From positions 1-33,230 of IMG/VR virus record IMGVR_UViG_3300032271_000509: DNA of 33,230 nt; one strand, given 5' to 3'. This DNA comes from a virus. Below, piece by piece: positions 26,723-28,500 of the stretch. Within the stretch, counting starts at the first letter, position 1; each line of letters opens with the position of its first letter. Below the pieces are notes generated by a model. That model did no database searches. It was not told the DNA's origin and worked only from the letters and a program-made list of their open reading frames with translations. Position numbers and translations under genes: made by a program.

Positions 26723-26930
26723 TCAGCCTGTCCAAATAGTGGCGCGCTTTCCTTAAATCTTCGACGCCGCCCTTCTTGTCGCAGCGGGCCAAGTATTTGA
26801 TGGCGTTACCTCTCAAGAACCCGGCAAAGGCCTCTGTCGACATCCAGCACTGCATGGCGTCCCATGGCTGCACGCTGCCCATGTCGACGTAGTGTGAGCC
26901 CCCGATTTGCCGCTTACCTGCTGCGCTCAT
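26700..26930 (-). CDS. DUF3310-family protein
   Basis: The motifs GGSHY......QPWD and GNAIKYLARCDKKGGVEDLRKARHYL are the DUF3310 signature. Confidence 0.75.
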   Translation of the reverse strand: MSAAGKRQIGGSHYVDMGSVQPWDAMQCWMSTEAFAGFLRGNAIKYLARCDKKGGVEDLRKARHYLDRLIELECRE

Positions 26931-27960
26931 TCAACAAACTCCATGCTGTTGCTGCCACTGCTGGAACCTGTCCGTTGCCAATGGCTTTAAGTCGGTGTGA
27001 CCGATGGGCCACCCCATAAGCCACTCGACCCACGTCGGGTTCAGTTGCCCACCACTCTCCGGCGATTCCGCCAGAGCTTCGCGCCTCGCTATCGCGCCGA
27101 GGCTGTTTGACTGCTGAGAGTTCCCGTTCAGTCGATAGCTGTCCTCGTTCGCTCCTGGTGTCGGATACACGTTTCTCTTGGTTGCACCGCGCTCCACTGC
27201 ATAGTCCAAACGGTCCCGCAGCGCACCCTGCTTGCCCGCACCTTTGTGGTCGCTGGCTTGTGGCGTCGGCCACAACCTCACCGCACCGCCAAGCGTCGTG
27301 CCCCGACGCGATGCATTTGCCGCAGCACCCACGCCCCGAACTTGCGCGTTGTCCTGCGTTGTCGGCGTCGGCCAGCGGTGAGGCGTGTTCATCTGCTGCA
27401 CCAGTGAGATGCCCGTCATGCTGTCGGTGATCGTCCCGCCCCGCGTCGAATCGCTCGCCGACGGCGTGGCCCACAAGCCAGAACCTGTCGCGCTGGTGCG
27501 GCGCGCCGACATCGGCAGCTCCCAGCACTGTCCAGCGGCAGTCATACCCGAGCGCGGCCAGATCACTAAGGACAACTCCAAGTCCTCGAGTAATGAGTGC
27601 TGGGCTGTTTTCCACAAAGACGTAGCGGGGTCGAACCTCGCCAACGATGCGCGCCATGTGCTTCCACATTCCGCTGCGCTCTCCGGTGATGCCTGCACCC
27701 CCCCCCGCGACTGAGATGTCTTGACAGGGAAACCCGCCAGCCACGACGTCAACAATTCCGCGCCACGGTTTTCCGTCAAAGGTCTGCACGTCATCCCAAA
27801 TCGGGAATGGCGGGAAGCATCCATCGTTTTGTCGTGCCACAAGCATGGCTTGGGCGTAGGGCTCCCATTCGACGGCGCACACGCAGCGGTGTCCGAGCAG
27901 TTGGCCGGCAAGAATGCCGCCACCAGCGCCTGCGAATAGATGAAGCTCATTCAGACTCAT
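26914..27960 (-). CDS. DNA (cytosine-5)-methyltransferase, frame A
   Basis: Motif I LFAGAGGG, IV GGFPCQDIS, VI FVENSPAL, VIII APHQRDRFWLVG, X LKAIGNGQVPAVA. The start at ATG 27960 (MSLNELHLFAG) is preferred over the track start at 28017. About 135 central codons have no recognisable target-recognition domain. Confidence 0.8.
   Translation of the reverse strand: MSLNELHLFAGAGGGILAGQLLGHRCVCAVEWEPYAQAMLVARQNDGCFPPFPIWDDVQTFDGKPWRGIVDVVAGGFPCQDISVAGGGAGITGERSGMWKHMARIVGEVRPRYVFVENSPALITRGLGVVLSDLAALGYDCRWTVLGAADVGAPHQRDRFWLVGHAVGERFDAGRDDHRQHDGHLTGAADEHASPLADADNAGQRASSGRGCCGKCIASGHDAWRCGEVVADATSQRPQRCGQAGCAAGPFGLCSGARCNQEKRVSDTRSERGQLSTERELSAVKQPRRDSEARSSGGIAGEWWATEPDVGRVAYGVAHRSHRLKAIGNGQVPAVAATAWSLLNERSR
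26931..27950 (-). CDS. Nested +1-frame ORF (339 codons) carrying TRD-like WPTP repeats and a motif-IX-like EWLMGWP segment
   Basis: Fully inside frame A. Contains LWATPSASD, RWPTPTTQD, LWPTPQASDHKG, VYPTPGANED and LNPTWVEWLMGWPIGHTD. Its ATG forms an ATGA overlap with the resolvase stop, and its TGA abuts the ATG of the DUF3310 gene. Confidence 0.5.
   Translation of the reverse strand: MSFIYSQALVAAFLPANCSDTAACAPSNGSPTPKPCLWHDKTMDASRHSRFGMTCRPLTENRGAELLTSWLAGFPVKTSQSRGGVQASPESAAECGSTWRASLARFDPATSLWKTAQHSLLEDLELSLVIWPRSGMTAAGQCWELPMSARRTSATGSGLWATPSASDSTRGGTITDSMTGISLVQQMNTPHRWPTPTTQDNAQVRGVGAAANASRRGTTLGGAVRLWPTPQASDHKGAGKQGALRDRLDYAVERGATKRNVYPTPGANEDSYRLNGNSQQSNSLGAIARREALAESPESGGQLNPTWVEWLMGWPIGHTDLKPLATDRFQQWQQQHGVC
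27698..27706. repeat. C9/G9 homopolymer inside the methyltransferase (codons AGGGAG after motif IV)
   Basis: Nine consecutive C on the + strand, counted directly. Confidence 0.95.
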
Positions 27961-28267
27961 GCCACACACACGGCCGCTCGCCTTGCCGCTGAACCAGCCA
28001 GCTCGAGGTGCCGGCAATCTTCGAGATCAGCATCCACCTCAGCCGACGTGACGCCGCCTGGCGCATGGCCTGGGCCTTGTGGTCCGGCAAGATGCCGGCG
28101 CAGTTCTTGACCTCAACGCACCAAGTCACACCGGCCGCGTCGGTGGCGATCAAATCCGCTGACGTGATGCCGCCGGTTAGGTCATCGACGGCGTAGTCCC
28201 TGGCCTGCAGCAGGTGCTTGGCCTGCGTTTCCCCTGCCCTGCCCTTGCGTCGGCTGGCTTCGCTCAT
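27947..28267 (-). CDS. Hjc-like / PD-(D/E)xK Holliday-junction resolvase
   Basis: GRAGETQAKHLLQARDYAV......SADLIATDAAGVTWCVEVKN is the Hjc-type G..GE...D...E.K pattern. The start at ATG 28267 has an ATGA overlap with the upstream stop. Confidence 0.6.
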   Translation of the reverse strand: MSEASRRKGRAGETQAKHLLQARDYAVDDLTGGITSADLIATDAAGVTWCVEVKNCAGILPDHKAQAMRQAASRRLRWMLISKIAGTSSWLVQRQGERPCVWHESE

Positions 28268-28500
28268 TCGCAAACCTCAAACAGCGACAGTTGCGCCGGT
28301 TCGCTTACACACACTTTGTGGCCAAGCTGCGGGTAATCACGCTCATCAGGCATGCGCAGTCGAACCCCGTTTTTGTCGCGTATGCCCATTTCAATTTCAA
28401 GCGTTTCGCATTTGGCCCAGTAAGCGTCCCGAATCGATTGATCCTCGCCCCACGGCATATCGCGCAGCATCTGAACGTAGGCTTCGGCAAGCTGACTCAT
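28264..28500 (-). CDS. Hypothetical protein (78 aa)
   Basis: Track ORF with ATGA coupling at its start. Confidence 0.55.
   Translation of the reverse strand: MSQLAEAYVQMLRDMPWGEDQSIRDAYWAKCETLEIEMGIRDKNGVRLRMPDERDYPQLGHKVCVSEPAQLSLFEVCE

Follow-up and report, generated by a model that had tools for sequence, protein, structure and literature searches.

Background

M.EcoHK31I, a DNA cytosine-5 methyltransferase (C5-MTase) of Escherichia coli HK31, consists of two polypeptides that are both required for activity. Its β chain is encoded wholly within the α gene in another reading frame, with α carrying motifs I-VIII, motif X and the target-recognition domain (TRD) and β carrying motif IX; the N-terminal 42 residues of β are needed for association with α, and internal Met codons can initiate β (Lee, Kam & Shaw 1995, through PMC2836561 and PMC3404938). 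M.AquI of Agmenellum quadruplicatum is a natural two-subunit C5-MTase split in the variable region, α comprising motifs I-VIII and β motifs IX and X (Karreman & de Waard 1990, cited in PMC3404938). Here we describe a C5-MTase locus in the window, by which we mean the whole 33,230-nt stretch of IMG/VR virus record IMGVR_UViG_3300032271_000509, to which the coordinates refer. On its minus strand lie two open reading frames (ORFs), frame A and, nested completely inside it in the +1 frame, frame B, and we consider it likely that these fully overlapping same-strand ORFs encode a heterodimeric (split) C5-MTase.

Judged from its published description, M.EcoHK31I shares the layout of this locus: B lies inside A in the +1 frame, A carries motifs I-VIII together with motif X, while motif IX is in B. 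It differs in that its β is a 176-aa ORF nested in the variable region, whereas the putative β of the window measures 339 aa against 348 aa for α and spans the whole gene from an adjacent start. In addition, the TRD of M.EcoHK31I is described in α, whereas the constrained recognition-like region of the window is in β and α is neutral there, and the window enzyme is phage-borne and apparently an orphan, with no restriction gene beside it. M.AquI had been named as the precedent in an earlier reading of this DNA from its letters alone (the sequence-only reading). As a natural two-subunit C5-MTase split in the variable region it holds as a precedent, but its motif layout fits less well than that of M.EcoHK31I, motif X being in frame A and the overlap being complete in the window. 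An M.AquI-like motif distribution is found in two relatives of the locus (L008 and L121; relatives are given by such numbers where they have to be told apart) and in the actinophages Vash, Scottish and Geodirt. These actinophage pairs (Streptomyces phage Vash gp32/33, Mycobacterium phage Scottish gp68/69, Gordonia phage Geodirt gp4) have a homologous β with an N-domain, (L/W)PTP repeats and the motif LNPxFxEWMMGxPxGW, which is likewise in the +1 frame and overlaps motifs VI-VIII of the catalytic gene. Unlike in the window, the overlap is partial, β has the TRD and motifs IX and X in one frame, and α ends shortly past motif VIII in Vash and Scottish and about 110 codons past it in Geodirt.

Coding hidden in an alternative frame of phage methylase genes has also been described as the 'ShiLan domain', an HNH endonuclease inserted out of frame into actinophage methylase genes (PMC11855218). 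That domain, absent from the window, is a mobile selfish endonuclease insertion and not the enzyme's own second subunit. Overprinting produces the long same-strand overlapping genes of small viruses (review PMC8227390). There, too, two proteins come from one stretch with asymmetric selection along the overlap; in the window, however, the products would be parts of one enzyme and not an old gene with a de novo accessory protein, and the dominant frame runs A, then B, then A and B together, then A. The literature searched, which lacked most subscription journals, contained no description of a phage-wide overlapping arrangement, but only the descriptions of EcoHK31I and AquI and the ShiLan HNH paper. 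The arrangement is known from one characterised enzyme, M.EcoHK31I, and the window holds a more extreme and very widespread form of it.

Results and discussion

Organisation of the two reading frames

Frame A runs from ATG 27960 to TAA 26914 and frame B from ATG 27950 to TGA 26931, and both are open, as the sequence-only reading had described; the coordinates also confirm its placement of the canonical motifs in A, then B, then A. Frame A is open already from the first TTG (26914..28017, minus strand), but its ATG at 27960 is the start that matches that of relatives (MSL-NELHLFAGAGGG). The features of the locus are as follows.

26914..27960, minus: frame A ORF, candidate α subunit, 348 aa + TAA; motifs I-VIII, tether, pre-X segment and motif X helix
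26931..27950, minus: frame B ORF, candidate β subunit, 339 aa + TGA; N-terminal extension, N-domain, WPTP-repeat region and motif IX
27947..27960, minus: start region; A ATG 27960-27958, B-frame TGA 27953-27951, B ATG 27950-27948, TGA of the upstream gene 27949-27947
27469..27960, minus: catalytic half of A (motifs I-VIII), overlapping B residues 1-160
27916-27939, minus: A motif I, LFAGAGGG
27712-27738, minus: A motif IV, GGFPCQDIS
27698..27706, minus: G9 homopolymer within both ORFs (A: SVAGGGAG)
27606..27650, minus: start of the conserved N-domain of B (ASLARFDPATSLWKT...), which extends to the first WPTP unit and overlaps A motifs VI-VIII
27595-27612, minus: A motif VI, ENSPAL
27469-27495, minus: A motif VIII, QRDRFWLVG
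27141..27476, minus: putative target-recognition region of B, four WPTP-type units
27450-27476, minus: WPTP-type unit LWATPSASD of B
27351-27377, minus: WPTP-type unit RWPTPTTQD of B
27240-27275, minus: WPTP-type unit LWPTPQASDHKG of B
27141-27170, minus: WPTP-type unit VYPTPGANED of B
27058..27468, minus: A tether, residues 165-301, overlapping the WPTP-repeat region of B
26992-27057, minus: A pre-X segment EWWATEPDVGRVAYGVAHRSHR, on the bases of B motif IX
26991-27044, minus: B motif IX, LNPTWVEWLMGWPIGHTD (B 303-320), sharing bases with the A pre-X segment
26985..26991, minus: CTTAAAG, the return slip site proposed in the sequence-only reading
26953-26991, minus: A motif X, LKAIGNGQVPAVA, overlapping the B tail LKPLATDRFQQW...

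Conservation of both frames

Selection with B gave 62 distinct IMG/VR loci, and in 58 of them both frames are open, with a common start and with stops at most 40 nt apart. The same is true of about 58 of 70 loci that were selected by the first 175 residues of A only, a selection that is unbiased with respect to B. Counting stops per frame in homologous loci, a check suggested by the sequence-only reading, showed for more than 130 related viral contigs that about 85-90% have the double ORF, and that the third frame (C) always contains 8-28 stops; across full-length genes of the loci selected by A the number is 8-27.

When both translations were compared with GenBank phages by tblastn, the same places were matched in two frames. 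Both ORFs take up the full gene length in the complete genomes of Acinetobacter phage ABMM1 (A 304 aa, B 298 aa), Microcystis phage Mel-JY01 (A 305 aa, B 281 aa) and Salmonella phage S9-5 (A 244 aa, B 247 aa), the genes of the first two having about 45-50% G+C. Complete phage genomes with the double ORF belong to seven host genera (Acinetobacter, Microcystis, Salmonella, Escherichia, Klebsiella, Vibrio and, with phi1026b, Burkholderia), and an intact A/B pair is present in the closed chromosome of E. coli PT62 (L175), where PGAP annotates frame A alone. The full-length double ORF extends to distant catalytic families, namely those of coliphage ESSI2_ev129 gp29, Klebsiella phage RCIP0114 and Burkholderia phage phi1026b gp68, whose pair also begins GTGAATG, and further those of Acidovorax phage Alfacinha3 gp46 and Vibrio phage 1.003.O.

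A set of 5.8 billion sequences contains more than 5,700 full-length homologues of B; in that set B-type proteins lack a Pfam domain and carry either no name or that of 'hypothetical protein', and A-type proteins are named DNA cytosine methyltransferase. By a HMMER scan of 1.84 billion cluster representatives (50% identity), 16,048 B-type proteins were obtained at E <= 1e-3, and among the matches listed most begin at the same Met. A scan with B of contigs from metagenome-assembled genomes (MAGs), using narrow peptide patterns, yielded four MAG loci. A plasmid search with B returned six records, none of which adjoins an obvious restriction gene or is recognisable as EcoHK31I. B-type matches lie beneath annotated 'DNA cytosine methyltransferase' genes on a Leptospira interrogans plasmid (H85; NZ_CP043879.1, 51888-52670) and a Paenibacillus polymyxa plasmid (H86), and on the basis of these two matches the arrangement may extend well beyond the phages of Proteobacteria, Cyanobacteria and Actinobacteria.

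The contribution of chance was estimated from 200 shuffles of synonymous codons within the gene, which keep the protein and its codon usage. With the A protein of the window fixed, 4.6 stops are expected in B, and with the B protein fixed 8.5 stops are expected in A; in neither case was the other frame open in any shuffle (0/200). Over the 62 loci, the mean fraction of shuffles open per locus is 0.009 for B given A and 0.001 for A given B. By segment, B over the catalytic half of A in the window has 1.2 expected stops and stays open in 16% of shuffles, and A over the middle has 3.4 expected stops and stays open in 0.7%. Openness in the window is thus by itself suggestive; what decides the matter is the comparative data, and chance is excluded as the cause of the double open frames.

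Complementary selection along the overlap

An alignment of 96 intact pairs was made by B protein, and the DNA was threaded on it. For each frame omega was then derived from single-nucleotide differences in otherwise identical 5-nt contexts, which were classed by their effect in A and in B and compared with the possible changes per class, a simplified home-made OLGenie-like count that uses no tree. Selection proved to be complementary, each frame being under purifying selection where the other is not, and this answers the question of per-frame constraint by segment that the sequence-only reading had raised. Over A motifs I-VIII, omega_A is 0.02-0.15 and omega_B 0.16-0.57. Over A 165-301 and B 166-298 the relation is inverted, with omega_A at 1.1-1.3 and omega_B at 0.19-0.22. 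Where B motif IX lies over the A pre-X segment both frames are constrained (omega_B 0.04-0.05, omega_A 0.23-0.33), and over A motif X and the B tail omega_A is 0.01-0.14 and B is weakly constrained. The same pattern was obtained when transitions and transversions were counted apart.

Residue conservation varies along the gene in a comparable manner. Residues of the catalytic half of A are 67-96% conserved among the 96 loci, and conservation in the motif IX/pre-X segment is 0.89 in B and 0.74-0.90 in A. G328, N329, G330 and Q331 of A motif X are invariant among 87 homologues. L303, P305, E309, W310, L311 and P315 of B motif IX are invariant too. The tether of A, on the other hand, is unconstrained and neutral in sequence; it varies in length among relatives and aligns poorly in frame A.

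Two descriptions in the sequence-only reading have to be amended in this light. Frame A does end in motif X, but it is not featureless up to that point, since its conserved stretch begins about 22 residues earlier with EWWATEPDVGRVAYGVAHRSHR, over the bases of B motif IX. The N-terminal half of B is open, as was described, but is not merely open by chance. In the catalytic half, A-synonymous changes build up about half as fast as B-synonymous ones in the middle, or as doubly synonymous ones, so that B is under weak to moderate amino-acid constraint here, and part of this half (about residues 100-165) is a domain shared with the β subunits of actinophages.

Family and predicted fold of the frame A protein

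Residues 6-170 of A match Pfam PF00145 (E = 5.6e-33) with motifs I, IV, VI and VIII present, and motif X is outside the profile alignment. The match to TIGR00675 (E = 1.6e-25) is below the cut-off of that family, and phrog_363 ('DNA methyltransferase', 327 positions) is matched over the full length (E = 2.7e-68). AlphaFold2, given 87 homologues, modelled the large domain (residues 1-175) with confidence, pLDDT being mostly 82-95, as well as residues 328-348, which include a helix at 331-345 (pLDDT 85-88); over most of 182-327 pLDDT is below 50. With this model Foldseek retrieved M.HhaI, M.HaeIII and DNMT1 over about 168-195 columns, M.HhaI being the best (E = 1e-13, 168 columns). A folded TRD with motif IX was looked for in the same chain between motifs VIII and X and was not found, this region being of low pLDDT, neutral in omega_A and unalignable in frame A. 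Because the stretch from motif VIII to the pre-X segment evolves neutrally and is modelled without confidence, A holds no candidate TRD.

Nature of the frame B protein

B matches phrog_1008 ('DNA methyltransferase') over residues 60-321 (E = 8.4e-38). Residues 194-317 of B can be aligned with 199-351 of mycobacteriophage WillSterrel gp71 (E = 4e-9; L168, 966-2141), a single-chain C5-MTase in which the aligned stretch is situated between motif VIII and the motif X 'LRIIGNGVVPQQ'. B motif IX aligns with LNPAFPEWMMGWPTG of gp71, which directly precedes motif X. On these alignments B is a homologue of the TRD-IX part of single-chain WillSterrel gp71 and of the actinophage enzymes. Further upstream, residues of about 100-165 ('FDPxTSxWKT...WPxSGMxxxG...SGLWxTP') constitute a conserved N-domain over A motifs VI-VIII in phages of Proteobacteria, Cyanobacteria and Actinobacteria.

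WillSterrel gp71 has motifs I-VIII, two LLPTP units, motif IX and motif X all in frame. Its +1 frame over motifs VI-VIII contains an open B-type N-domain and first LLPTP unit, with a stop about 40 codons later, and, compared to its split relatives, gp71 may be a natural fusion made by frameshift.

The window and coliphage ESSI2_ev129 have the block WPTPTTQDN..GAAAN..RGTTLGGA.RL.WPTP.ASDHKG in common. Between them the recognition block is about 75% identical and the catalytic domains are 33% identical, which points to exchange of recognition modules between catalytic domains.

Start codons of A and B

The start regions of relatives follow the consensus NTG-A-ATG-AG, in which A starts with ATG, GTG or TTG and the B ATG comes at once. 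An A start codon stands directly before the B ATG in 82 of the 96 intact loci, and in 75 of these 96 a Shine-Dalgarno-like motif is found at most 19 nt upstream. The base that follows the A start turns its TG into a TGA, and in L001 and L003 the annotated upstream gene ends at this TGA. The B ATG itself sits within the Asn-Glu codons of A, with AAT as the A codon, or CAT where the residue is His; AAC never takes the place of AAT/CAT, even in genes of 60-66% G+C. In the window the two starts are 10 nt apart, where most relatives have 4 nt, and it is the B ATG instead of the A start that the upstream stop overlaps. The argument of the sequence-only reading that operon geometry favours B does not hold, since in most relatives it is the A start that overlaps the upstream stop, and the geometry gives no preference for B over A.

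About 12 extra codons separate the start from ELALFAGAGG in frame A of L015, L030, L060, L074, L107, L109, L119 and L122. In those checked (L015, L060 and L074), the B ATG and the N-terminus 'M(S/T/A)WL(I/F)S' are displaced upstream along with the insertion, which hints that the first residues of B matter.

A proposed two-subunit enzyme and the points against it

That the locus specifies an overprinted two-subunit C5-MTase was the first of three readings put forward from the sequence alone, and it agrees with frames that are both open in independent, divergent genomes of high quality, with complementary selection and with the conserved B ATG. In this enzyme α would consist of the S-adenosylmethionine (AdoMet)-binding, catalytic large domain (motifs I-VIII), a neutral tether of about 135 residues that would be translated and is probably disordered, a short conserved segment and the motif X helix, which would complete the large domain. 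The small domain would be supplied by β, with its conserved N-domain, a WPTP-repeat region for target recognition and motif IX. Ribosomes would divide between the two adjacent start codons, arriving by termination-reinitiation or, in relatives, from one shared Shine-Dalgarno site, and the subunits, made together, would combine to give the active enzyme, probably an orphan methylase by which the phage shields its DNA from host restriction. We infer the separate translation of the chains, their physical assembly, the need for both and the biological role.

Several points weigh against this interpretation. Translation of two chains, at the window locus and in relatives, is deduced from sequence. 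The assignment of B as TRD plus motif IX draws on homology to phage methylases and on motif resemblance; B matched no model in Pfam or NCBIfam, and a profile of its 96 homologues gave nothing significant against PDB sequences. AlphaFold2 of B alone was poor (pLDDT 54, pTM 0.29), too poor for a fold search; such a result would be in keeping with folding on a partner and on DNA, though it is not evidence for this. PF00145 aligns motifs I-VIII only and never IX or X, natural single-chain and β-type relatives included. The published description of M.EcoHK31I places the TRD in α, and the TRD-like region of the window is in B. The omega estimates come from a simplified count on non-independent pairs with few doubly synonymous changes, and the evidence that B residues 1-100 are constrained at the amino-acid level is moderate. 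Finally, CTTAAAG with its shift-prone A-AAG is kept in about 75% of the 96 loci, which speaks for recoding, and given this conservation a minor frameshift product is possible.

Alternative explanations

The alternative that survives best, though we think it unlikely, is that frame B encodes a genuine protein which is no subunit of the methylase. This would then be an overprinted accessory protein, for instance a DNA-binding regulator or an anti-restriction factor, and A a self-sufficient short methylase. In favour of this, A has a loose motif-IX-like segment (EPxVGRVAxGVxxRxxRL) just before motif X, phrog_363 covers A end to end, and known methylase domains are matched by B neither in profile nor in structure searches. 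However, the neutral, low-confidence stretch of A from motif VIII to the pre-X segment provides no candidate TRD, and the C-terminal two thirds of B are homologous to the VIII-X stretch of a single-chain C5-MTase and to β ORFs with motif X in frame. In the loci inspected B never occurs without an overlapping A-type catalytic ORF, and M.EcoHK31I requires both chains.

Recoding, the second reading of the three, appears somewhat less probable still. Ribosomes would shift +1 from A to B just after motif VIII and -1 from B back to A at CUU-AAA-G, making one polypeptide in the order I-VIII / TRD-IX / X, which would account for the motif order A, B, A and has a parallel in natural single-frame relatives such as WillSterrel gp71. 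Conservation of CTTAAAG was rejected as evidence for slippage, since both constrained frames read a conserved L-K from it, and several relatives, Microcystis phage Mel-JY01 among them, have replaced the heptamer, with CTTAAGG, ATTGAAG or CTTGCGG seen in its place. At the first junction the 96 loci have no conserved slip site, and because the bases of motif VIII (RDRxWxVG) are also those of the first WPTP unit (SGLWxTP), a fusion must lose one of the two. The fused spacing from IX to X would be about 7 residues, compared to about 15 in actinophage relatives. Recoding moreover leaves unexplained the conserved B ATG and the roughly 160 open codons of B that precede the supposed entry in about 85-90% of loci, the openness of A through about 130 neutral codons that would never be read, and the doubly constrained junctions, with the A pre-X segment, upstream of CTTAAAG, under purifying selection (omega_A 0.23-0.33). 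PF00145, which had been proposed as a test of A, B and the chimera, cannot discriminate between the readings, since it stops at motif VIII; applied to A-B-A, B-A and A without the tether it gave no gain over A alone.

The third reading takes the apparent A, B, A pattern for an ordinary single-frame methylase gene broken up by two compensating assembly or sequencing indels. It could point to the G9 homopolymer at 27698-27706 and to the frame switches at poly-G runs in some metagenomic relatives, but is refuted by both full-length ORFs in more than 100 independent loci (35-97% identity, complete phages and the closed E. coli chromosome included), by an independent IMG/VR contig with 100% amino-acid identity to both window ORFs, and by frames that are both open over the entire gene, beyond the parts that indels would require.

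A split C5-MTase thus remains the best account of the locus, and the data support an overlapping pair that is real, ancient and doubly selected and that encodes such an enzyme. A wider proposal, which we hold to be evenly balanced when its parts are taken jointly, is that the M.EcoHK31I layout is the standard architecture of a very large clade of orphan C5-MTases of phages and prophages (numbering no fewer than 16,000 clusters at 50% identity and reaching phages of Proteobacteria, Cyanobacteria, Leptospira, Actinobacteria and, probably, of Firmicutes). In this clade the whole small domain (TRD and motif IX) would be in the +1 frame, with an overlap of about 1 kb under dual selection; two starts 4 nt apart behind one ribosome-binding or reinitiation site would set the subunit ratio; the variable region of α would be a tether that is translated yet meaningless, and the N-terminal half of β, lying over catalytic motifs I-VIII, a functional α-binding segment.

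Natural variants

Tracts of G8-G10 occur at no fewer than 6 different positions in 12 of 96 relatives, well above a rough estimate for chance. The tract at window position 27698-27706 is also present in L005, L063 and L135, and L013, L046, L087, L089, L093, L123 and L128 have G tracts elsewhere in the double-coding gene. Phase variation is possible, because a one-base change in tract length would swap or break both frames at once. More speculatively, poly-G tracts could act as switches that swap the frames, turning the enzyme off or rewiring it.

In L072, L083, L098 and L100 the frame switches inside the recognition region at runs of Gly codons, with motif X in the B frame and motif IX in the third frame. 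In L108 the switch comes after GGILGGG near motif I, and the A start runs into B-type sequence. The displaced pieces of these five relatives still look intact; they may be phase-OFF variants, homopolymer sequencing errors or real rearrangements. L008 and L121 have motif X in B after an insertion, and A stops early. Given these two relatives and the four switched in the recognition region, motif X can sit in either frame.

An ORF for an HNH endonuclease (CxxC ... HHxDxDxxNNxxxNLQxLCxxCHDxWH) is inserted between motifs IX and X in L008, L108, L121 and L131, in another frame, and the host frame reads through it without stops. In L008 the insertion is fused to a duplicated 'EWLMGWPIGHTDL'. These insertions closely resemble the ShiLan domain (PMC11855218) and are found here in phages of Gram-negative hosts. 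In the E. coli 23CRST032 prophage (L176, 901-1662) the gene is annotated as a pseudogene ('internal stop'), with stops in A (ENSPLLV*) and B (CLFE*) a few bases apart, and both subunits appear to have been lost together.

Flanking genes

The junctions are as the sequence-only reading had them: the B ATG (27950-27948) and the TGA of the upstream gene (27949-27947) overlap as ATGA, the B TGA (26933-26931) abuts the ATG of the downstream gene, and frame A overlaps its neighbours by 14 and 17 nt. The downstream gene is of the DUF3310 family (PF11753, E = 2.3e-16). For the upstream gene (27947-28273, minus strand) the name 'resolvase' is not borne out: it has no match in Pfam, and in NCBIfam a weak match to the YraN family (PD-(D/E)xK-like; E = 2.8e-4) that is far under the family cut-off. 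The 9-mer TGAATGAGC occurs twice on the minus strand, at the B start (27945-27953, stop-ATG-AGC) and at the B TGA followed by the DUF3310 ATG-AGC (26925-26933). This is probably a coincidence of coupled-junction sequences, but could mark a cassette boundary.

Annotation of A and B in public genomes

Gene callers and PGAP retain one of the two frames, so that thousands of B proteins pass as 'hypothetical proteins' and thousands of 'DNA cytosine methyltransferases' stand without their putative recognition subunit. For Acidovorax phage Alfacinha3 gp46 (L179) it is the B-frame ORF that is labelled 'cytosine-specific methyltransferase', and the catalytic frame is omitted. A 297-aa catalytic ORF is unannotated in Gordonia phage Geodirt (L167, 1299-2192), and the annotated starts of the actinophage β genes (L084, L085; Vash gp33, Scottish gp69) are 340-390 nt downstream of the onset of B homology.

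Conclusions

To our knowledge, long same-strand overlaps in which both frames are selected are rare in cellular organisms and dsDNA phages. The interest of the present locus lies in its scale, in the clean alternating pattern of selection and in the consequences for annotation. A deeply conserved overlap of about 1 kb that encodes two parts of one enzyme is a clean natural system for the co-evolution of two proteins on one sequence, and the arrangement is a route for swapping recognition modules among unrelated catalytic domains, as between the window and ESSI2_ev129. Cloning frame A alone, for specificity or for epigenetic tools, carries the risk of an inactive enzyme, and in M.EcoHK31I-type enzymes the recognition domain may lie in β, not in α.

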